Shown: piece by piece, positions 39,244 to 50,264 of the stretch
How the letters are laid out: each line of letters opens with the position of its first letter
Position numbering within the stretch: position 1 is the first letter of the stretch
Origin: Candidatus Saccharimonadales bacterium
GTDB taxonomy: Bacteria > Patescibacteriota > Saccharimonadia > Saccharimonadales > 2-12-FULL-41-12
Length of the DNA: 64,000 nucleotides
Assembly (NCBI GenBank): GCA_041906505.1
Contig: JAYRJB010000008.1
Coordinates: forward strand, 72,053-136,052
Direction: 5' to 3'
Made by a program: the position numbers and the translations under genes
Notes under the pieces: generated by a model
Databases searched by the model: none
Told to the model about the DNA's origin: nothing
What the model saw: the letters and a program-made list of their open reading frames with translations, nothing else

Positions 39244-39678
39244 ATGGCCGATGCCAAAAAAGTCAAAGCAAATCTTAAAATGAAAATTCCAGCTGGTAAA
39301 GCAAGTGCGGCGCCTCCTGTGGGGAGCACGCTTGGTCAATACGGAGTAAATATGATGGATTTCATTGGGCCGTTTAATGATGCAACCAGGGATCTCGGAA
39401 ATGTAACCGTAACGGCGCATATAACTATCTATGATGACCGCTCGATGGACTTTCGAACCGTTGGAGCGCCTGCCGATGATTTAATTCGCGCCAAACTAGG
39501 AATACAGAAAGGTTCGGGACGACCAAATACTGAAAAAATTGAAAAAAAACTATCTGATGCTGATCTTACTTCGATTGCCGAAGCAAAAGCTGGCGACATG
39601 AATACCGAGGATATTGCCTCAGTGAAAAAGATGGTTGCCGGAACCGCGCGAAGTATGGGTGTTGAAGTTGAGCAATGA
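39244..39678 (+). CDS. rplK: 50S ribosomal protein L11
   Basis: 144 aa. Motif KIPAGKASAAPPVGSTLGQYGVNMMDF. Confidence 0.96.
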   Translation: MADAKKVKANLKMKIPAGKASAAPPVGSTLGQYGVNMMDFIGPFNDATRDLGNVTVTAHITIYDDRSMDFRTVGAPADDLIRAKLGIQKGSGRPNTEKIEKKLSDADLTSIAEAKAGDMNTEDIASVKKMVAGTARSMGVEVEQ

Positions 39679-39956
39679 TCCAAAAAAGAGTGCTTATGGC
39701 TCTAGATACTGAAAATCTTGAACTGTTCGTTCGCAAAGAAGTTGCGTTGCCGGAAGGGCATGTGAGTAATCAAAATGGCTATGACGAACAAAGGCCAAAT
39801 GATGCGCAAGAAGCTACGCAAGCTACTGGCGTTGCTCCCCCGCTTGAACGTACGCCACTCAGTGTGGAGGCTGTACAGGAACGTTTGCGACCAGACTCTG
39901 AAGAGAGAACTGTTGGACCCGTGTTGGCAGCAATTATTAGGTTTCGTAAGAATTAA
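39675..39956 (+). CDS. hypothetical 93-aa protein between rplK and rplA
   Basis: ATGA overlap with the rplK stop. No family recognised. A competing ORF exists in another frame, so coding status is uncertain. Confidence 0.3.
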   Translation: MIQKRVLMALDTENLELFVRKEVALPEGHVSNQNGYDEQRPNDAQEATQATGVAPPLERTPLSVEAVQERLRPDSEERTVGPVLAAIIRFRKN

Positions 39957-40018: not shown

Positions 40019-41047
40019 ATGTCAGATTCAAAAAAAGCCAAAAAGCCTTCTAAGGCAACCCCGGCCGATAACAAGATACTAAAAAAGGCCGAGGCAATTG
40101 TAGAAGAGCAAGTTACGGAGAAGATCGCAGAGCTGGTTGAGACCGAAGCAATCGCAGAGGCAATAGTTGAAGTCGAGCATCAAATTGACGACGAAGCTGT
40201 AGTTGTAAAGTCAACGGCGAAAGCTGGAAAGCGCAGCGCAAAGGCAGTTGCCGAGAAGCAGAAGACAGCTGAGAAAGAAGCGCGGAAAAAGACAGCAGCC
40301 GGGCAGGAATCACAACCAAAACCGAAAGCACCAATAAAGCCAACTCGAAGCCGGGCAGAACGACGAGCGAAGAAGTATCGAACGCTCGCAAAGCTGGTTG
40401 ATGCCCAAAAACTTTACGAAGTCAATGAGGCGGTCGCACTTGCACTTAAAACGTCGACCACCAAGTTTGACTCAACAGTTGAGCTGCATATTCGCTTAAA
40501 TGTTGACCCAAGGCAAGCTGATCAAAATATTCGAGATAATCTAGTATTGCCCGCAGGAACGGGAAAAAAGGTTCGTGTTGCAGTGTTCGCCGAAGAGGAT
40601 GTTGCAAGCGCCGCTCTAAAGGCAGGTGCCGATGTGGCGGGCGAAGCGGACTTCTTGGCGCAACTCGATAAAGAAGTGATCGATTTTGATGTACTGATCG
40701 CGACACCAAGTGTTATGGCTAAATTGAGTAAGTATGCACGTGTTTTGGGTCCAAAAGGATTAATGCCGAATCCAAAGAGCGGGACTGTCACGAAAGACGT
40801 GAACAAAGCTATTTCGGCTGCAAAAGCTGGGCGGGTGGAATATAGGGTGGACAGCACCGGCATAGTACACGTTGGGGTAGGAAAAGTTAGTTTTGGGCCC
40901 GACAAAATTGGGCAAAACGTTGACGCGCTTCTGGCAAGCATAAAGCAAAATAAACCAGCTAGCCTCAAGAGTTCTTATGTGCGCTCTGTTACCATTTCTA
41001 CCACCATGGGACCGGGAATAAAAATTCAACCCTCAGCACTTAACTAA
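40019..41047 (+). CDS. rplA: 50S ribosomal protein L1 with a ~110-aa N-terminal extension
   Basis: 342 aa. The canonical L1 core starts near ...RRAKKYRTLAKLVDAQKLYEVNEAVALALK. The preceding ~110 aa have an acidic helical half and then a Lys/Ala-rich half. Confidence 0.93.
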   Translation: MSDSKKAKKPSKATPADNKILKKAEAIVEEQVTEKIAELVETEAIAEAIVEVEHQIDDEAVVVKSTAKAGKRSAKAVAEKQKTAEKEARKKTAAGQESQPKPKAPIKPTRSRAERRAKKYRTLAKLVDAQKLYEVNEAVALALKTSTTKFDSTVELHIRLNVDPRQADQNIRDNLVLPAGTGKKVRVAVFAEEDVASAALKAGADVAGEADFLAQLDKEVIDFDVLIATPSVMAKLSKYARVLGPKGLMPNPKSGTVTKDVNKAISAAKAGRVEYRVDSTGIVHVGVGKVSFGPDKIGQNVDALLASIKQNKPASLKSSYVRSVTISTTMGPGIKIQPSALN

Positions 41048-41091: not shown

Positions 41092-41121
41092 TTGCCTCCC
41101 ACCCCAAAACCCGGCTACAAT
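41092..41121 (+). promoter_or_regulatory. candidate promoter for dcd
   Basis: TTGCCT (41092-41097), 18-nt spacer, TACAAT (41116-41121). GGAGG lies 7 nt before the TTG start. Confidence 0.5.
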
Positions 41122-41147
41122 TGGGTGAGTAACAGCGGAGGTCCTCG

Positions 41148-41855
41148 TTGACGGTTTACAGTAACACGCAGATTCGACAGGCGTTAAACAATCAACACAT
41201 CGTCATCCATCCATATGTTGAAGAACATGTGGCTGGTAGTAGTGTCGACGTCACGCTCGGCCATTATTACTATCGAACAGAAAGACCAAGTGAAGGTGGT
41301 TTTTATAATCCATTTGACGAAAAAGCTGTTGAACAGTACTTTTCTGGTGCTATGAAGGCTGAAATTCACAATAAATGGGCCAAAACCCACGGCAGGGTTC
41401 CTTTTAAGAACATCCCTCTGTCCCAGCCAATTATTGTGCTAAGACCTCACGAGCGAATCCTGGCCCATACACACGAATTTATCGGTATTCGAGCTCCAGG
41501 AACGACCACAATGCAAGCTCGAAGCACTTGGGGAAGAAACGGGATTTCGGTTTGTCTCGACGCGGGCTGGGGTGATCCAGGCTATATCAATCGCTGGACA
41601 ATGGAAATCTACAATATGAACCAGCACGAAAGTGTTGTCTTGCCGGTTGGCGAACGAATCGCCCAGCTTGTTTTTTACGAGACCGGACCAGTCGAAGCTG
41701 AGTATAAGAGTTTAAGCGGAAAATATCAGTCGGACAAAAGTGCTGATTTGGATACGATTATCGCGAATTGGAACCCAGAGCAAATGCTTCCTAAAGCCTA
41801 CAAGGATGTTCGTCGTAAGCCACTGAAAGTCGAGGGTCTATCGGACTATGATTGA
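41148..41855 (+). CDS. dcd: dCTP deaminase family protein (possibly bifunctional dCTP deaminase/dUTPase)
   Basis: 235 aa, TTG start. Dcd-like blocks SSVDVTLG, ARSTWGRNGISV, AGWGDPGY..RWTMEIYN and GERIAQLVF. Confidence 0.8.
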   Translation: MTVYSNTQIRQALNNQHIVIHPYVEEHVAGSSVDVTLGHYYYRTERPSEGGFYNPFDEKAVEQYFSGAMKAEIHNKWAKTHGRVPFKNIPLSQPIIVLRPHERILAHTHEFIGIRAPGTTTMQARSTWGRNGISVCLDAGWGDPGYINRWTMEIYNMNQHESVVLPVGERIAQLVFYETGPVEAEYKSLSGKYQSDKSADLDTIIANWNPEQMLPKAYKDVRRKPLKVEGLSDYD

Positions 41856-41894
41856 ACCTCTCTATTCCATAGATTATGGGGTGGGGGGAGTGTC

Positions 41895-44213
41895 ATGACG
41901 CAAAGAGGAATATTTATTGTGCTTGAAGGGACCGACGGATCCGGCAAAGGCACGCAATTCAACCTTTTAGCCCACAAACTTGCCTTAGAGGGTTACGATG
42001 TAGTAACCTTCGACTTTCCTCAGTATGACCAAGAGTCAAGCTATTTTGTAAAGCAGTATTTGAACGGCAAGTATGGCACATCTGAAGAAGTCGGGCCGTA
42101 CACTGGTTCATTATTTTATGCACTTGATAGGTACCAGGCAGCTCCCAAAATCAAAGAAGCTCTCCAAGCAGGGAAAATTGTTTTAGCCAATCGATTTACC
42201 GGCTCGAACATGGCGCATCAAGGTACTAAATTTGATCACGTCGAGGAGCGAAAAGGCTATTTCTTGTGGCTGGATGCAATTGAATTTCGGACTTTGAACA
42301 TACCAAGGCCAGATCTTTCTCTGGTACTTAGAGTACCCGCCGAAATTGCCCAAAGGTTAGTTGATAAGAAGGCAGCCCGAGGTTACACGGATAAAAAAAG
42401 GGATCTACATGAGATGGATCTTGAGCATATGAAAAAGTCGGTTGAAGTATATGACAGCTTATGTCAGCTATTTCCAAAAGACTTTAAGCAACTTGACTGT
42501 GTGCGCAACAATCAACTTCTCGACATTGAAACAATACATAATATTATTTGGGAGACAATAATGCCGTTACTACCAAGCAAATCGTCCAAAACTACTAAGC
42601 TCACAGACGCTCATAATTCTGCAATTTCACAGAATCAATTGATAAAGAAAATTGATGATCGCTACGCAATAACTGAGGCGGGCGAAGAAGCCCTAAAGTC
42701 GGTTGTTACAAACACGAAGAGTGATGTGTACGGCTTCTATGACAGTATTAGTCCTATTACGATCGCTGCAGCTATGGCCAGACTTAGCCGCCGTGGCGAC
42801 GACATGAGGATAACCTTACTTGACGAATTTCTGGGCGCAGCAGGAAAAGATGAGCAGCTACTCAAAAGAGTCATTACTGCGTATGGCGATGATTCTGTCC
42901 AGCAACTCGCCGGACAGCATGTGGTCGTAGAGGGAGCAAGCAACCTGCTTACGAAGAAGCTCGAGTGGGGACGATTGGCGGCATATCTCGAACAGTCAAC
43001 CCGCTACATATATTTTGACCAGAAGGACGCCGCTGGCCGCTACAAGTACTTTATTCCGACAACCTTAGACCAAGAGACGAAAGCGCTGTACATAAAAACA
43101 AACGATAAAATCTTTGATCTATACTCGAGTATGGTGCATGATTTAACAGCTTATGTTCGTAACACTTCTTCGGTACCAAAAGCCGAGCAAGATGTTGCTT
43201 GGAATGGTGCTACTAGAGCTCAAGCCTGTGATGCGGTACGTCCGGTTTTGCCGGTCGCGACCAAGTCAACAGTTGGAATATTCGCATCTGGACAAGCCCT
43301 TGAAAGCCTTATCATGCACCTACTATCAGACGAATTAGTTGAGGCGAACGAAACAGGAAAGAAGATTTTAGCCGAAACTCGAAAAACCGTTCCAATGTTC
43401 CTTGAAAGAGCTGATAAGCCAGATAGAGGTGGTGCGATGGTTGCCTACCGCGCGGAAACAGCAAAGCAAGTAGCCAATTTTGCGAATAAACATGTTCCCG
43501 ATACCTATAGCACGGCGTACGAGGCCGTTACCCTCACGAATGTCTGGCCAAGAAATGAGATGGACCTAGTTCCCAATATGCTCTACGAATACAGTTCTCA
43601 TTCTCTCCAAGAGCTAGAAGCTGAAGTTTCAAAATGGCCATACGAAAGAAAGCTTGAAGCCTTCAACTCATATATGGGTGAGCGTCTAAATCGAAGACAG
43701 CGTCCAGGTCGAGCAATCGAAAACGCTCACTACAGCTGGGACATCGTGTGCGATTACGGTATATTTCGGGACCTGCAGCGTCATAGAATGGTTGACGATA
43801 TGGCTTGGCAACAGCTTACCCCACGCTATGGTTATGAGGTTCCAGCGTTAGTTGAAGAGGCTGGTTTGACAGAAAAGTTTGAAACTTGCTTTGACCTAAG
43901 TCTGAAACTGTACAGTGTGTTGCAAGCAGGGGGCTACGGGTACGAGGCGCAATACGCCACGCTACTTGGGCACAGAATGCGCTGGAAAATGACATTTAAT
44001 GCTCGCGAGGCATTCCACTTTATTGAGCTACGCACGACCCCACAAGGACATCCTGGCTACAGGTTGTTGACGCAAAAAATTTATGAAAAGCTCAAGGAAG
44101 CACATCCTCTCATTGCTGGCGCAATGAAGTTTGTAAATCAAGGTGAGGACCCAGAGCTGGCGCGTTTGGCAGCAGAGCGCTACACGCAGTTTAAGCTAAA
44201 GAACTTGCAGTAG
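41895..44213 (+). CDS. tmk-thyX: fusion protein: N-terminal thymidylate kinase plus a C-terminal double-length ThyX-like flavin-dependent thymidylate synthase region
   Basis: 772 aa. Residues 1-~215 carry IVLEGTDGSGKGTQ (P-loop) and LDRY (Tmk). Residues ~270-772 carry ThyX-like blocks SPITIAAAMARLSRRG, FRDLQRHRM and NAREAFHFIELRTTPQGHPGYR. Confidence 0.7.
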   Translation: MTQRGIFIVLEGTDGSGKGTQFNLLAHKLALEGYDVVTFDFPQYDQESSYFVKQYLNGKYGTSEEVGPYTGSLFYALDRYQAAPKIKEALQAGKIVLANRFTGSNMAHQGTKFDHVEERKGYFLWLDAIEFRTLNIPRPDLSLVLRVPAEIAQRLVDKKAARGYTDKKRDLHEMDLEHMKKSVEVYDSLCQLFPKDFKQLDCVRNNQLLDIETIHNIIWETIMPLLPSKSSKTTKLTDAHNSAISQNQLIKKIDDRYAITEAGEEALKSVVTNTKSDVYGFYDSISPITIAAAMARLSRRGDDMRITLLDEFLGAAGKDEQLLKRVITAYGDDSVQQLAGQHVVVEGASNLLTKKLEWGRLAAYLEQSTRYIYFDQKDAAGRYKYFIPTTLDQETKALYIKTNDKIFDLYSSMVHDLTAYVRNTSSVPKAEQDVAWNGATRAQACDAVRPVLPVATKSTVGIFASGQALESLIMHLLSDELVEANETGKKILAETRKTVPMFLERADKPDRGGAMVAYRAETAKQVANFANKHVPDTYSTAYEAVTLTNVWPRNEMDLVPNMLYEYSSHSLQELEAEVSKWPYERKLEAFNSYMGERLNRRQRPGRAIENAHYSWDIVCDYGIFRDLQRHRMVDDMAWQQLTPRYGYEVPALVEEAGLTEKFETCFDLSLKLYSVLQAGGYGYEAQYATLLGHRMRWKMTFNAREAFHFIELRTTPQGHPGYRLLTQKIYEKLKEAHPLIAGAMKFVNQGEDPELARLAAERYTQFKLKNLQ

Positions 44214-44751
44214 CTGTAACGCCTGGTAAAATCATTGCCCGATTTGTCGCAACAACAGACTCGTTATCTTGCATGGCTACGATGTGTGACTTTTGGCTTG
44301 CTTCTTGGAGAGCGTAATCAATTTCTTGTAGTCGATCTTGTTCAACAACGCCCAGATTTGTACTAAGCCGTGCATCGACAAGCATAAGCTCAAGGGCACT
44401 CGCACCCAAATTCTTTACTGTCGCTTGCGTACAATCTGTTGACTTAATTGATTTTCTTAGCTCAAGGCTACCAATTACACCCAAACCGTACTCTCGAAAG
44501 ACTAGCCCCGCAATAGTGTGCAGAATGAACCGTCCCCGCACGTCGTCCTGTTGTAAGTGGATCTGATGGCGCTGAAAGCCGTTTTCAAATGCAGCTTTCA
44601 CTTGAGGTATATATAACTCATTGATACGAGCTGTTCGGTCTGGATTTCTTTCCATAATTGACTTGAGAGACTCAGAGTCCCGGTCTCTGTCAATTACTTG
44701 CCAACCACATTTGGCAGTCAATTTTGCTTGTTTGATAAGGTCATACATCAC
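44191..44751 (-). CDS. hypothetical 186-aa protein
   Basis: GTG at 44751 or ATG at 44748. Its 3' end overlaps the tmk-thyX 3' end by 23 nt in convergent orientation. No family recognised. Confidence 0.5.
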   Translation of the reverse strand: MMYDLIKQAKLTAKCGWQVIDRDRDSESLKSIMERNPDRTARINELYIPQVKAAFENGFQRHQIHLQQDDVRGRFILHTIAGLVFREYGLGVIGSLELRKSIKSTDCTQATVKNLGASALELMLVDARLSTNLGVVEQDRLQEIDYALQEASQKSHIVAMQDNESVVATNRAMILPGVTATASSLA

Positions 44752-44760
44752 ATATCTCTT

Positions 44761-44798
44761 AAAAAATAATACTCCAAACCCTTTGACGGCATCTGGAG
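44761..44798 (-). terminator. candidate intrinsic terminator/attenuator inside the minus-strand 5' leader
   Basis: Minus strand: GCTCCAGA-13 nt-TTTGGAGT stem followed by ATTATTTTTT. It ends about 10 nt before the start codon. Confidence 0.4.
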
Positions 44799-44928
44799 CT
44801 TCACTTTTTAGCCTTTACCTAGCAAAACTCCTCTGATCGCTAACTTCGGCACTTCACCATGCACACAATAGAGATATCTACGCGGGATGGCTTAGCCAAA
44901 TACGAAATAGGAGTTTTCACAATATGCG

Positions 44929-44956
44929 ATTATATACTGATTATTTTTTGTGTCAA
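44929..44956 (-). promoter_or_regulatory. near-consensus leftward promoter
   Basis: Minus strand: TTGACA (44956-44951), 16-nt spacer, TATAAT (44934-44929). About 170 nt of leader precede the 44751 ORF. Confidence 0.6.
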
Positions 44957-44979
44957 TATATGTGATTTGCAAAAAAATA

Positions 44980-45008
44980 TTGACACACGTCGAGTGCAGT
45001 GGCAATAT
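44980..45008 (+). promoter_or_regulatory. candidate rightward promoter
   Basis: TTGACA (44980-44985), 17-nt spacer, CAATAT (45003-45008). Its -35 box is the right arm of an 11-bp inverted repeat shared with the leftward promoter. Confidence 0.5.
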
Positions 45009-45096
45009 TGTGTCTGTGAACAGCGTAATTTCACTCGCACTGATTCTGCTCGACAGACCGAGCGGGTGATTTGTTGTTGTGCATTATCGCGACAAG

Positions 45097-45121
45097 CTCC
45101 CGCAACTAAGCGGGAGTTTTT
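45097..45121 (+). terminator. intrinsic terminator/attenuator in the rightward 5' leader
   Basis: CTCCCGC-aactaa-GCGGGAG followed by TTTTT. It lies 26 nt upstream of the ATG at 45148. An upstream GCGGGTG (45062-45068) could pair with the 5' half as an antiterminator. Confidence 0.65.
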
Positions 45122-45147
45122 AATTGTATGAGAAGGAGTGAGTAAAA

Positions 45148-45492
45148 ATGAAAGAAAAATCACCAGAGCAAATGCTGCGCGAAACCCGTGCGCTTGCGAC
45201 AAAAGTTGAGAATGACAGATTGGGCAAAACTATAATCCAGTCATTTACAAATGGTGAGATACGGCAAGTCTCGAACTACGGGGAGGGAGCTCAACAGAAT
45301 TCAGCTGTAATCCGTGAACCTTTTACAGCCGGAGAACCGACAGCAGGCCTTGAGCCTACACAAGAGCCAGACGAGACTATTGATAAAGGTAATTCTGTGC
45401 AAGAGGTAGTCGTAAGGGTTGGTGAAACATCACTAAATATTTCTGGGGTTTTCTCTCCAGATAGATACGCGATACTTGCGCCGTTAGAGTAG
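45148..45492 (+). CDS. hypothetical 114-aa protein
   Basis: AAGGAG RBS 9 nt upstream of the ATG. No family recognised. Confidence 0.55.
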   Translation: MKEKSPEQMLRETRALATKVENDRLGKTIIQSFTNGEIRQVSNYGEGAQQNSAVIREPFTAGEPTAGLEPTQEPDETIDKGNSVQEVVVRVGETSLNISGVFSPDRYAILAPLE

Positions 45493-45521
45493 TTGCTCTG
45501 ATTGCCATATTCTGCTAAAAT
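45493..45521 (+). promoter_or_regulatory. candidate promoter of the rplJL operon
   Basis: TTGCTC (45493-45498), 17-nt spacer, TAAAAT (45516-45521). Confidence 0.55.
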
Positions 45522-45612
45522 ATGTCGTTAGTTACCGAAGACAGTAGCGTCTCGAGACAATTGAGATTAAGAATGCTACCGAGGAGTAAATATTTAGCAG
45601 CACGCTTATATT

Positions 45613-45641
45613 AGTCTTTGGTTTCATCCAGAGGCTTTTTT
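45613..45641 (+). terminator. intrinsic terminator within the rplJ leader (attenuator candidate)
   Basis: AGTCTTTGG-tttcat-CCAGAGGCT is a 9-bp stem (two G-U pairs) followed by TTTTTT. It lies 55 nt before the rplJ ATG. Confidence 0.5.
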
Positions 45642-45696
45642 ATGGTCGATACATCGCTTCTGGAATCAATGTAACACATGTAATGAAGGTCAAAAT

Positions 45697-46224
45697 ATGG
45701 CTTTAACAAAAGTAAAAAAACAAGAGGTTGTGGGCGAAGTCGGTGCGTTGTTATCGACGTCGAAATTAACAGTTGTTGCGGAGTATCAAGGCACCAGCGT
45801 GAAAGCCATGCAAGGCCTAAGAGCATCTGCTAAAGAGCAGGATACGATAGTCAAAGTTGTTAAGAATAGGCTCGTAAAGCAAGCTCTTGCAACTAATGAT
45901 GTCTTTAAGGACGCTGATACCTCAGCGTTGTCTGGTCAGTTACTCTACGTGTTCAATGCACATGATGAAGTGGCGCCAGCGCAAGTACTCGCCTCGTTTG
46001 CAAAGACCAACCCCAATATCAAGTTTGTGGGTGCGTACTCTACTGACGGGTCATTTATGTCAGCTGAAGACGTAACAATGCTTGCAAATCTACCAAGCAA
46101 AGATCAGCTACGTGCGCAGCTAGTTGGTACTATCGCCGCTCCACTGAGTGGGTTTATCAACGTAATGAGCGGTAATGTGCGCGGTGTATTAAATGTCTTA
46201 AATGCTCGAGCAGAAAGTTTATAA
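45697..46224 (+). CDS. rplJ: 50S ribosomal protein L10
   Basis: 175 aa. Typical L10 organisation. Directly precedes rplL. Confidence 0.93.
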
Positions 46225-47425: not shown

Positions 47426-48895
47426 ATGGGGAAAGCATTATATCGCACATATAGGTCAAAATCATTTGACGAGATACTGGGCCAAGAACACGTTACGACG
47501 ACGTTAAAGAATAGCCTAAAAAAAGGGTCTATTTCGCACGCCTATCTTCTTACGGGTCCACGGGGGGTTGGAAAAACGAGCGTTGCTCGGCTACTTGCGT
47601 TCGGGGTTAATAAGCTTGACTATACAGAAGACGTTCAACACCTTGACATAATAGAAATTGATGCAGCTTCGAATCGGCGCATCGAGGAGATACGGTCGCT
47701 AAGAGATACTGTTAATATTTCTCCAGTGTCTGCTACCTACAAAGTGTATATAGTTGATGAGGTGCATATGCTGACGAAAGAAGCATTTAATGCCTTGTTA
47801 AAAACACTAGAAGAACCACCAGCCCACGTTATATTTATTCTTGCAACAACGGAAGTGGGTAAGCTTCCCGAAACTATCGTCAGTCGTTGCGTAAGGTTTT
47901 CCTTCAAACCAATACAAGCTGAGCAAATTCAAAAACATCTTGCTGACATTGCAAAAAAAGAGAAACTTTCAATTGATGATGACGCTTTGCGTCTGATTTC
48001 TGAGCATAGCGGTGGCAGCGTGAGAGATGCCATCTCATTGCTTGATCAAGTAAAAAACGTGAATGACAGTGTGACAATCATTGACGTGGAGCGTATGATG
48101 GGCCTTGCGTCCGATGACATAATTAGCGGACTATTGCTGTCTATTGCCAACGGTGATTTGCGGCGTCTCAGCGAAACTCTGACAAATGCAAAAGTGTTTG
48201 GTGTCAGCGATATTATTCTTGCCTCCCAAATTGGTCAAGCTATTCGGAACGGTCTTCTAAGCCCCAATCAATCGGTTCTAACAACAGAGCAAGCCCTAAA
48301 CGTTCTTAGTAGCCTTTTAGATGTACCCAGCGCGTATATGCCATCAGCAAAGCTAGAGTTAGCTTTATTTGGCGCGTGCATTGAAAATACTTCGGATAAG
48401 AACCCAAAACCACAAAATCCTGCGCATGTTCAAGATAAAAACGAAAAAAGCAACGAAAGCCAAGTTCCTGTCGACAGCATTCAAGAACACCACACCGTCA
48501 CCAAGCCCAAAACCGCAAAAAGGGAGCAAACCCGAGACAAACTGTCGGCGAATAATGAGATTTGGGAGCAAGTGCTCAACCAGTTGAAGGCCAAGCACAA
48601 CACCTTATATGGTGTTGCTAGAATGGCAAGCGCGGAGTGTACCAGCACGACACTACGTATGGCATTCCGGTTTCCGTTTCATTATAAAAAAATGGACGAT
48701 GCCAAGAGCAAAGAAATTATGCGCTTGGTGCTCCATGATCTTGGCTATGCACATATAGAAATTGAAGTCGCGCTTGACACTTCAGTCGCGCCGCCAAGAA
48801 TCTCCCAGAAAAAGCATCAAGCGGAAAATGAGAGCACTGCTGAAATATCAACCATTACCAATATATTTGGCGCACCAGAGATGTTAGAATCTTAA
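47426..48895 (+). CDS. dnaX: DNA polymerase III subunit gamma/tau
   Basis: 489 aa. Motifs GPRGVGKTS, DEVHML, LLKTLEEPP and SRC. TATAAT at 47410-47415 lies 10 nt upstream of the ATG. Confidence 0.92.
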   Translation: MGKALYRTYRSKSFDEILGQEHVTTTLKNSLKKGSISHAYLLTGPRGVGKTSVARLLAFGVNKLDYTEDVQHLDIIEIDAASNRRIEEIRSLRDTVNISPVSATYKVYIVDEVHMLTKEAFNALLKTLEEPPAHVIFILATTEVGKLPETIVSRCVRFSFKPIQAEQIQKHLADIAKKEKLSIDDDALRLISEHSGGSVRDAISLLDQVKNVNDSVTIIDVERMMGLASDDIISGLLLSIANGDLRRLSETLTNAKVFGVSDIILASQIGQAIRNGLLSPNQSVLTTEQALNVLSSLLDVPSAYMPSAKLELALFGACIENTSDKNPKPQNPAHVQDKNEKSNESQVPVDSIQEHHTVTKPKTAKREQTRDKLSANNEIWEQVLNQLKAKHNTLYGVARMASAECTSTTLRMAFRFPFHYKKMDDAKSKEIMRLVLHDLGYAHIEIEVALDTSVAPPRISQKKHQAENESTAEISTITNIFGAPEMLES

Positions 48896-48899
48896 TTAC

Positions 48900-50264
48900 A
48901 TGGATGATATAAGCGACAACACAAAAGTGCCGCCACAAAATATCGAGGCAGAAGCTAGTCTACTTGGTGCGCTGCTAATTGACGCTGATGCAATAGTAAA
49001 AGTTGCAGATACGGTTTCTGCGGATGATTTTTATGACCCCAAACACACCCACATCTACGCCGCCATACAGAAGCTCTATAACAAACATAGTCCAGTTGAC
49101 GTACTTACACTAAGTGACCAGTTAAAGAATGATGACCTGCTTGAGACGGTCGGGGGTGCTGCATATCTAACCGAGCTTACTAACTTCGTTCCCACCGCAT
49201 CACATGTGAATGAATACGCAGATATTGTTGCAACCAAAGCAATGCGTCGAAGGCTGATTAAGGCCAGTCGTGACATCACTAAGATCGGATATGACGAGGC
49301 CGAAAGTCTGCAATCTATTATTGAACAAGCAGAGGCGAGGCTTTTTGATGTAAGTAACCGCCATATCCGTCAAGATGTAATAAGTCTTGAGAAAATATTA
49401 AATGAAAGTTTTGAGCGACTTGATGAACTCCATAAAGACAAGGGAACCATTCGAGGCATTCCTACGGGTTTTAAGGATCTTGACAATGTGCTCGCAGGTT
49501 TACAGAGGAGCGATCTGTTTATTGTCGCTGCCCGCCCAAGTATGGGCAAAACGGCCTTTTCGCTTAATTTGGCGCACAACATCTCTATCAAATCTGGACA
49601 ATCGGTACTATTATTTAGCCTTGAAATGAGTAAGGAGCAATTGGTTGATAGGCTTCTTGCGATGGAATCCGGTGTTGATGCCTGGAGTCTACGAACTGGA
49701 AACCTTACCGATTCGGATTTTGAGAAAATTGCCCACGCCATGGGCACGCTAAGCGAGGCACCAATTTACATTGATGATAGTCCTGGAATAACGGTAGCTG
49801 ATATGAGAACAAAAGCACGTCGAGAAGCTCATCTGCGACCAATTGGTCTCATTATTGTTGATTATCTTCAGTTAATGAGCGGAGGAACAAGATACGGTGG
49901 TGAGGGGAACCGAGTGCAAGAAATATCGGAGATATCTCGTGGGCTAAAAGGCATTGCGAGAGAACTAAACGTGCCACTGATTGCCTTAAGTCAGTTAAGT
50001 AGATCTGTGGAAAGTAGAAACCCACAAATACCCCAGCTGGCTGATCTAAGAGAATCTGGTTCGATTGAACAGGATGCAGATGTGGTGGCCTTCTTGTACC
50101 GCGAGGAGTATTATAACCCCGACACCCAGAGGAAAAATATTACAGATATATTTATTAAGAAGCATCGAAACGGCCCAACTGGTGCTGTCGAGCTATATTT
50201 TGATCGAGAGAAGCAGCGATTTAGGAGCTTAGAGACAAAGCACACAACACCATTTGATGCTTAA
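48900..50264 (+). CDS. dnaB: replicative DNA helicase DnaB
   Basis: 454 aa. PPQNIEAEASLLGALLID N-terminus. Walker A ARPSMGKTAF. Confidence 0.95.
   Translation: MDDISDNTKVPPQNIEAEASLLGALLIDADAIVKVADTVSADDFYDPKHTHIYAAIQKLYNKHSPVDVLTLSDQLKNDDLLETVGGAAYLTELTNFVPTASHVNEYADIVATKAMRRRLIKASRDITKIGYDEAESLQSIIEQAEARLFDVSNRHIRQDVISLEKILNESFERLDELHKDKGTIRGIPTGFKDLDNVLAGLQRSDLFIVAARPSMGKTAFSLNLAHNISIKSGQSVLLFSLEMSKEQLVDRLLAMESGVDAWSLRTGNLTDSDFEKIAHAMGTLSEAPIYIDDSPGITVADMRTKARREAHLRPIGLIIVDYLQLMSGGTRYGGEGNRVQEISEISRGLKGIARELNVPLIALSQLSRSVESRNPQIPQLADLRESGSIEQDADVVAFLYREEYYNPDTQRKNITDIFIKKHRNGPTGAVELYFDREKQRFRSLETKHTTPFDA

Follow-up and report, generated by a model that had tools for sequence, protein, structure and literature searches.

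The canonical flavin-dependent thymidylate synthases, ThyX, are homotetramers, as in Thermotoga maritima (TM0449), Mycobacterium tuberculosis (Rv2754c), Helicobacter pylori and PBCV-1 (A674R). Their catalytic site is assembled from three subunits: one gives an Arg-His-Arg (RHR) motif together with a C-terminal arginine, and another a Ser-x-Arg-Tyr loop. The bifunctional dihydrofolate reductase-thymidylate synthase (DHFR-TS) of protozoa and plants shows that two consecutive thymidylate enzymes may be fused, and in their case metabolite channelling has been associated with the fusion. As for ThyX itself, the protein of Chloroflexi was reported to be one that 'contains a domain duplication' and 'has not been characterized' (Valas and Bourne, 2009; PMC3224940). 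Here we analyse 64,000 nucleotides of contig JAYRJB010000008.1 from a Candidatus Saccharimonadales bacterium (hereafter the window, 64 kb), where a dcd-like gene is followed by a single open reading frame (ORF) that joins a thymidylate kinase, Tmk, to two ThyX domains. Ultra-small and living as epibionts, Saccharibacteria have minimal genomes and no de novo nucleotide synthesis. We think it probable that the two genes make up a conserved Saccharibacteria route from deoxycytidine triphosphate (dCTP) to deoxythymidine diphosphate (dTDP), with the last two steps carried on one polypeptide chain.

Coordinates below are window positions; protein domains were assigned with Pfam and NCBIfam, and the RNA element with Rfam. 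Both ORFs lie on the plus strand between rplA and rplJ, where the original prediction had placed them, and all the motifs that it quoted are there. The dcd-like gene (41148-41855, 235 amino acids, Pfam DCD 6e-33) precedes the tmk::thyX fusion ORF (41895-44213, 772 amino acids). In the latter, which has full-length homologs and for which AlphaFold2 (AF2) models were built, Pfam detects both Thymidylate_kin (2e-18, residues 10-201) and Thy1 (PF02511, 116.6 bits against a cutoff of 24.8), the second in two stretches: a complete Tmk and a ThyX do share one 772-residue frame, as had been claimed. Along the chain are found GTDGSGKGTQ (12-21), LDRY (77-80), FRDLQRHRM (624-632) and NAREAFHFIELRTTPQGHPGYR (702-723).

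The N-terminal Tmk domain (residues 1-225, 41895-42569, plus strand), which we name class I, is of the mycobacterial type, as judged from PF02223 (67 bits against a cutoff of 27), NF005923, the PDB and Foldseek. Its P-loop GTDGSGKGTQ, its DRY and NRF..SN (99-105) motifs and its basic, Arg/Lys-rich LID, VDKKAARGYTDKKRD (156-173), are conserved. The best PDB sequence match is M. tuberculosis Tmk, aligned over 183 residues (1e-17). That enzyme (Rv3247c, NF005923), also among the best fold matches, shares the P-loop, DR(Y), NR(F/Y)..SN and the Arg-rich LID with the N-terminus of the fusion; by contrast, the kinase is here one domain of a larger protein and it scores below the family equivalog cutoff (NF005923 is the best NCBIfam match, with 117.8 bits under a cutoff of 193). 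In the full-length AF2 model (mean predicted local distance difference test, pLDDT, 76.7; predicted template modelling score, pTM, 0.52) the Tmk domain superimposes on solved Tmk with a target-normalized template modelling score (TMt) of 0.84-0.86, and a Foldseek search with this full-length model returned Tmk matches only, and no ThyX. Downstream of the kinase comes a variable linker (residues 226-270, 42570-42704, plus strand), whose columns are non-conserved in the family alignment. Its residues 231-246, with pLDDT below 50, are predicted to be disordered, and a short beta-hairpin/helix element follows them.

The remainder of the protein is about twice as long as a single ThyX domain, a length that had been noticed in the original prediction. 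Scanned separately with Pfam Thy1, it gives one match at residues about 290-500 (8e-15) and another at about 593-738 (8e-18). These define a first half, H1 (residues about 271-520, 42705-43454, plus strand), which by profile matches M. tuberculosis ThyX (3gwc), and a second half, H2 (residues about 541-772, 43515-44210, plus strand), the profile matches of which are the ThyX of PBCV-1, H. pylori and T. maritima. An AF2 model restricted to residues 250-772 is the better one (pLDDT 80.4, pTM 0.80). When it was submitted to Foldseek against the PDB, the best 50 of 134 matches (E<1e-3) were all single-domain ThyX of about 200-220 residues, with some 225 aligned columns, a TMt of 0.61-0.70 and a query-normalized score (TMq) of about 0.3; none of these best 50 is a tandem ThyX, and each of them spans roughly half of the modelled region. 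The predicted structure is thus that of a tandem of two ThyX folds, which accounts for the doubled length. Because a direct comparison of H1 with H2 by hhalign is weak (E of only 0.003, 9.6% probability), the duplication is best argued from the match of each half to Thy1 and to the ThyX fold, not from the similarity of the halves to one another. They are very old paralogs.

What the two halves have kept is the core of the matter. We tallied residues over 70 Saccharibacteria fusions and 37 diverse tandem ThyX representatives by way of profile alignments, using a T. maritima numbering that agrees with the mutant names S88A, R90A, R174A/K and H53A/D among the structure matches. H1 holds YGDDSV and LEWGRLAAYLEQSTRY, that is, the equivalents of S88, R90, Y91 and R147, and is devoid of the RHR, NAR and LR motifs. 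Its invariant residues are S334 (at the position of T55), R360 (R80), E366 (E86), S368 (S88), R370 (R90) and R449 (R147), while Y371 (Y91) is kept in 36 of the 37 diverse sequences; R78 has become W358, H79 has become G359, N163 and R165 have become S465 and Q467, and the R174 and H178 positions vary. H2 holds NRR.RPGRA.E, FRDLQRHR and NAREAFH..ELR..PQGH, with the equivalents of RHR, R165, R174 and H178, and lacks R147 as well as any family-conserved S-x-R-Y. Invariant there are E609 (E58), R625 (R74), R629 and R631 (R78 and R80), R704 (R165), R713 (R174) and H719 (H178), with H630 (H79) and N702 (N163) each present in 35 of the 37 diverse sequences. The S-x-R-Y positions of H2 vary from one member of the family to another, Gln predominates at the R147 position (all of the fusions have it, as Q686), and an invariant arginine, R606, stands at the position of T55. 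Between Saccharibacteria and Actinomycetota, whose sequences are here about 40% identical, purifying selection acts on H1 as well as on H2.

It follows that the ThyX signature, RHR followed after seven or eight residues by a serine, is found in no single domain. In H2 the RHR at 629-631 is followed by MVDDMAWQQLTPRY, with no serine at +7 or +8. The original prediction had remarked on this, rightly as far as H2 is concerned; the serine is not lost, though, and seems to be missing after RHR because it is located 260 residues upstream, as S368 in the LEQSTRY of H1. There, Trp-Gly-Arg replaces RHR, yet E366-Q-S368-T-R370-Y371 is kept, and the motif is complete only when both halves are combined. 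Judging from these alignments, the tandem family appears to have divided one full catalytic residue set between two domains. The halves share the fold of the canonical enzyme and its RHR, S-x-R-Y, R147, R165, R174 and H178 equivalents are each kept once; the same chemistry may be expected. The fusion differs from it by having two ThyX domains per chain, with RHR...S split between them, and by the attached Tmk. A dimer of the fusion would probably be a pseudo-tetramer with two complete active sites, rather than four.

The pathway that we favour would run as follows. A Dcd trimer would deaminate dCTP and probably also hydrolyse deoxyuridine triphosphate (dUTP), releasing deoxyuridine monophosphate (dUMP). 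The C-terminal 520 residues or so, acting as a tandem flavin-dependent ThyX, would then methylate dUMP to deoxythymidine monophosphate (dTMP), with the help of flavin adenine dinucleotide (FAD), NADPH and methylene-tetrahydrofolate. For this, H2 would supply RHR and the NAR, LR and His residues, for binding of the flavin and of part of dUMP, while H1 would supply the Glu-x-Ser-x-Arg-Tyr loop and the Arg147 equivalent, to complete the dUMP-binding and catalytic site. Finally, the N-terminal Tmk, tethered by its flexible linker, would phosphorylate dTMP to dTDP. With synthase and kinase on one polypeptide, their ratio would be fixed at 1:1, and local hand-over of dTMP might be possible. The analogy with DHFR-TS is one of principle: ThyA and DHFR have folds unrelated to those of ThyX and Tmk, and the step coupled to synthesis is folate recycling in the one case, phosphorylation of dTMP in the other.

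Several observations weigh against this reading. The equivalog cutoffs are passed neither by ThyX (TIGR02170, 49.6 bits against 87.9) nor by Tmk (TIGR00041, 65.4 bits against 83.25). A single-sequence phmmer search of the PDB with either ThyX half finds no solved ThyX, so that the synthase must be regarded as very divergent. The equivalent of M. tuberculosis S71 is invariant only in H1 and that of R190 only in H2. In the homotetramer S71 and R190 come from a single subunit; a simple assignment of the geometry of the composite site, therefore, does not fit. Channelling of dTMP is purely inferred, the linker being predicted to be flexible and the full-length model having a pTM of 0.52. What the sequences themselves show is the identity of the domains, the conservation of their residues, the integrity of the fusion, its distribution and the order of the genes, whereas enzyme activities, oligomeric state and number of sites are deduced from them. 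The analysis covered 64 kb of the genome, and within these no second copy of dcd, tmk or thyX is found, nor any dut or thyA.

The first step deserves separate consideration, as it is where an alternative survives best. The dcd-like ORF has a TTG start, with a GGAGG ribosome-binding site 5 nucleotides upstream. Its product passes TIGR02274 narrowly (94.2 bits against a cutoff of 92.8) and scores 114.4 bits with PF22769. In the PDB its best match is 4xjc (1e-17), followed by the bifunctional enzymes of Methanocaldococcus jannaschii (1ogh) and M. tuberculosis, with the monofunctional enzymes of the Escherichia coli type ranking lowest. We take 4xjc to be the bifunctional dCTP deaminase-dUTPase of Bacillus halodurans. 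The protein was said to be longer than a typical Dcd, and so it is: 235 residues, when solved structures have 155-204, and the length is conserved: of 35 orthologs recovered from Saccharibacteria, 34 have 226-238 residues and the last is an 83-residue fragment truncated at a contig end. In monofunctional dCTP deaminase an arginine located two residues before the catalytic aspartate (Arg126 in E. coli) obstructs the water needed for hydrolysis; in bifunctional enzymes the position is taken by Phe or Trp, and the equivalents of Ser102, Asp119 and Gln148 are required (PMC3360063). The deaminase residues S126, R130 and E153 are present in the window protein and conserved in its orthologs. At least 90% conservation is seen, across the 35 orthologs, for a W141-G-D143 motif, the tryptophan of which aligns with a tryptophan in 1ogh and in 4xjc, and Q173 is present and conserved as well.

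The window Dcd thus shows what is expected of a bifunctional enzyme, W141 along with S126, D143 and Q173 for hydrolysis of dUTP, and it is because Trp replaces the blocking Arg, with the hydrolysis residues in place, that direct conversion of dCTP to dUMP is the better supported: to go by these residues, the protein likely carries it out. The original prediction had made its pathway conditional on this very property, and the condition now has support. The resemblance to the bifunctional dCTP deaminase-dUTPases of M. jannaschii (MJ0430) and M. tuberculosis (Rv0321) extends to the Ser/Arg/Glu set, the aromatic residue before Asp and the Ser/Asp/Gln set. By contrast, the window protein is some 30-60 residues longer, owing to a stretch inserted beyond about position 46 and to a tail of some 30 residues at the C-terminus. 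It might nevertheless be monofunctional and release dUTP, in which case the module would need a dUTPase encoded elsewhere in the genome. TIGR02274 spans both types and is barely passed, and the insertion (some 25-40 residues) and tail, absent from the characterized enzymes, leave the behaviour of the protein not certain from its sequence. We see this as unlikely nonetheless, with Trp141 at the position of the blocking arginine, the Ser, Asp and Gln of hydrolysis in place, the bifunctional 1ogh as the closest named solved relative while the E. coli type comes last, and no dut paralog within the window.

A second alternative elaborates on the tandem, and we hold it to be quite unlikely. The ancient duplication would have turned a homotetramer into a half-of-sites pseudo-heterotetramer with two composite active sites, and the two degenerate sites would have been re-used, for docking of or hand-over to the tethered Tmk or for allosteric binding of nucleotides, so that dTMP would never be free on the way from dUMP to dTDP. 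Invariant residues do persist in the degenerate sites, such as the GDDS motif of H1 and Arg606 of H2. Were this reading true, the exchange of one Tmk domain for another in place, which we describe below, would reflect strong selection for physical coupling.

To return to the pathway in which the tandem simply makes dTMP, it might be objected that this ThyX is no thymidylate synthase at all, being instead a methylase of another substrate, UMP or dCMP, or an inactive nucleotide-binding regulator of Tmk. There is precedent for such substrates in ThyX-like enzymes of antibiotic pathways; besides the low equivalog score and the single-sequence search of the PDB just mentioned, each half is without half of the canonical residues, and the duplicated form has never been characterized. 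The pattern of loss, by contrast, does not suggest a pseudoenzyme in decay: what one half has lost the other has kept, exactly, and one full residue set remains invariant across phyla. Furthermore, the protein is fused to an enzyme that consumes dTMP and encoded beside one that makes dUMP, a company that it keeps in unfused genomes as well, and the window has neither thyA nor a second thyX. This makes the objection very unlikely to hold.

The spread of the fusion bears on its reality. A search with the 772-residue protein gave 7294 significant matches, the best 120 of which are all 759-795 residues long, 68-94% identical to it over their full length, and endowed with both PF02223 and PF02511; several of them are named Candidatus Saccharibacteria or Saccharimonadales. 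With a family profile, all 8000 of 8000 candidates fell below 1e-10, and the 120 further fusions listed, all from Saccharibacteria, brought no new diversity. In total more than 240 listed fusion clusters have 759-815 residues, with one exception of 714 (P0315), and they derive from NCBI, JGI, ENA and Logan assemblies, contigs of more than 1 Mb being among them. A scan with one genome per species places the family in at least 598 genomes, and an uninterrupted fusion within the conserved gene order is found in about 35 species-level Saccharibacteria genomes. No database record is identical to the window protein; its nearest relative, P0001, has 94% identity. An artefact of assembly or a frameshift joining separate tmk and thyX genes, a thought that the adjacent separate genes of two related genomes (L033 and L035) might encourage, is effectively refuted by the same unbroken architecture in those more than 240 independent clusters and some 35 species genomes, by a linker that is in frame and by a base composition that does not shift at the junction.

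The survey of public genomes called for by the original prediction has therefore yielded thousands of homologs and no artefact. That it did not recognise the fusion as one already described fits the searchable literature, in which no publication came up that deals with a Tmk-ThyX fusion or with the ThyX of Saccharibacteria, and in which the complementary partition of the ThyX site and the replacement of the Tmk domain are absent too. Databases are another matter, as annotation pipelines already label these proteins: 'dTMP kinase' and 'FAD-dependent thymidylate synthase' are names in use, and JGI has 'thymidylate kinase/thymidylate synthase ThyX'. The component enzymes belong to known families and the fusion proteins are abundant.

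Where does this architecture come from? The tandem ThyX has 659 representative clusters with E<1e-30, many of them of 510-560 residues with an alignment that runs from end to end. The best 150 of 3393 representative clusters include both stand-alone proteins of this length and, interspersed with them, N-terminally extended forms, the extension being mostly a Tmk. The stand-alone proteins come from Actinomycetota (Acidimicrobiia, Microthrix, Bifidobacteriaceae), with single matches in other phyla, at 38-42% identity, and in Actinomycetota they have no dcd, tmk or ribosomal neighbours. These duplicated ThyX of about 510-560 residues, in Actinomycetota and Chloroflexi, are of the same family as the fusion and have the same invariant residues in each half; unlike it, they are without a Tmk domain, without dcd or tmk neighbours and without a location between ribosomal protein operons. 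The ThyX of Chlamydia may be double-length as well. Two Saccharibacteria-labelled loci of deeper lineage are instructive. In L033 (4148-7608) dcd, tmk and the tandem thyX are separate adjacent genes, and in L035 (4986-7572) tmk and the tandem thyX are likewise separate and adjacent. Neither has ribosomal protein genes within 6 kb. Their arrangement is likely to be the state that preceded fusion.

In the fusions themselves the Tmk domain comes in two versions. Those of class I (P0001-P0119) have the P-loop of the window protein, EGTDGSGKGTQ, and a Tmk 59-95% identical to the window's. In class II (P0283-P0396) the P-loop reads EG[PA]EGVGKTTQ and the Tmk is only 23-27% identical to the window's, but the ThyX part is 66-72% identical. 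The class II Tmk matches those of Pseudomonas (3.6e-24) and E. coli (8.8e-19) and not that of M. tuberculosis, while for the window's Tmk the situation is reversed. Hence the Saccharibacteria fusion carries two non-orthologous versions of Tmk, a mycobacterial one and a canonical bacterial one, whereas its ThyX scaffold has been inherited vertically. When the ThyX part was used for neighbour-joining trees, with Actinomycetota as the root, class II came out as monophyletic in 154 of 200 bootstrap replicates and class I in none of the 200, class II being nested inside class I; all the fusions form a group that excludes the outgroup and the unfused genes in 136 of the 200. The simplest history is that of a tmk-thyX operon which underwent one fusion and then one in-place replacement of Tmk, with the fusion kept. 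That the kinase was replaced while the fusion was retained argues for selection on physical linkage. On the side of origins, the nearest relatives outside Saccharibacteria of the tandem ThyX (L042-L082, from Acidimicrobiia and other Actinomycetota), as of the class I Tmk (M. tuberculosis type), are actinobacterial. Since cultured Saccharibacteria live on Actinomycetota as their hosts, the tandem ThyX and the Tmk might have passed from host to epibiont by gene transfer.

We now come to the chromosomal setting. A run of genes in the window comprises secE, nusG, rplK, rplA (40019-41047, Pfam L1 1e-59), the two thymidylate ORFs, then rplJ (45697-46224) and rplL. Upstream of rplJ lies a complete ribosomal protein L10 leader (45517-45650, plus strand; Rfam RF00557, 56.5 bits against a gathering threshold of 44, E 3.5e-07), which is the start of the separately regulated rplJL operon; a terminator-like hairpin at 45613-45636 is inside this leader. 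Given the leader, the dcd-fusion pair occupies a natural boundary between rplKA and rplJL, and no operon is interrupted. The order rplK-rplA-(variable)-dcd-tmk::thyX-(variable)-rplJ-rplL is that of nearly all of about 40 Saccharibacteria loci retrieved, while the spacers that flank the pair differ between genomes in length and content. The same neighbourhood is found on contigs with relatives of 71% and 94% identity, one of these contigs being of 1.19 Mb, and the base composition is level throughout the region. What had been presented as a local insertion between rplA and rplJ is an old, phylum-wide arrangement, not a recent event.

The dcd stop codon and the ATG of the fusion are separated by 39 nucleotides, with a G-rich ribosome-binding site before the fusion and no terminator predicted in this gap, and co-transcription of the two genes would be plausible from such a layout. 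A promoter of their own had also been proposed. The hexamer pair in question, TTGCCT-18-TACAAT at 41092-41121 upstream of dcd on the plus strand, matches the consensus at 9 of 12 positions; we dropped it, as sites as good number 11 in the region against 6.9 +/- 2.8 in shuffled sequences, a frequency that is not above chance.

Other features of the neighbourhood may be recorded. The product of rplA has 342 residues, its L1 domain extending only over residues 143-332 after an extension of about 140 residues rich in Lys, Ala and Glu; relatives in loci L001 and L002 have 326-341. Between rplK and rplA, and overlapping the rplK stop codon, an ORF of 93 codons (39675-39956, plus strand) has as counterpart in L002 an 85-residue gene call with no Pfam match. 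Downstream of the fusion, a convergent ORF of 186 codons (44191-44751, minus strand) overlaps the final 23 nucleotides of the gene. It has no Pfam or NCBIfam match. Only L002, the relative with 94% identity, has a recognizable counterpart; in L001 an unannotated ORF of no relation to it takes its place. The intergenic region that follows (44752-45147) has, on its minus strand, the sequence TTGACA-16-TATAAT (44956 to 44929), which fits the sigma-70 consensus perfectly. A plus-strand site with 10 of 12 matches (44980-45009) faces it, and two terminator-like hairpins lie at 45045-45119. Beyond these sites comes an ORF of 114 codons (45148-45492, plus strand) with no family match. Farther on, with rplJL and a single small ORF in between, two plus-strand ORFs that are probably dnaX (47426-48895) and dnaB (48900-50264) lie some 3 kb downstream of the thymidylate module; the corresponding Pfam domains are carried by ORFs at the same position in L001 and L002.

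None of this changes the known chemistry of thymidylate synthesis. The tandem ThyX has separated, into two domains, residues that elsewhere come from three identical subunits, and this would permit asymmetric mutagenesis, which is impossible in a homotetramer. In addition, one and the same gene family displays an unfused operon stage, a single fusion and a later non-orthologous domain swap with the architecture kept. For Saccharibacteria, finally, the dcd-fusion pair is probably the only route to thymidine nucleotides, which makes it a candidate for an essential function and, possibly, for selective targeting.

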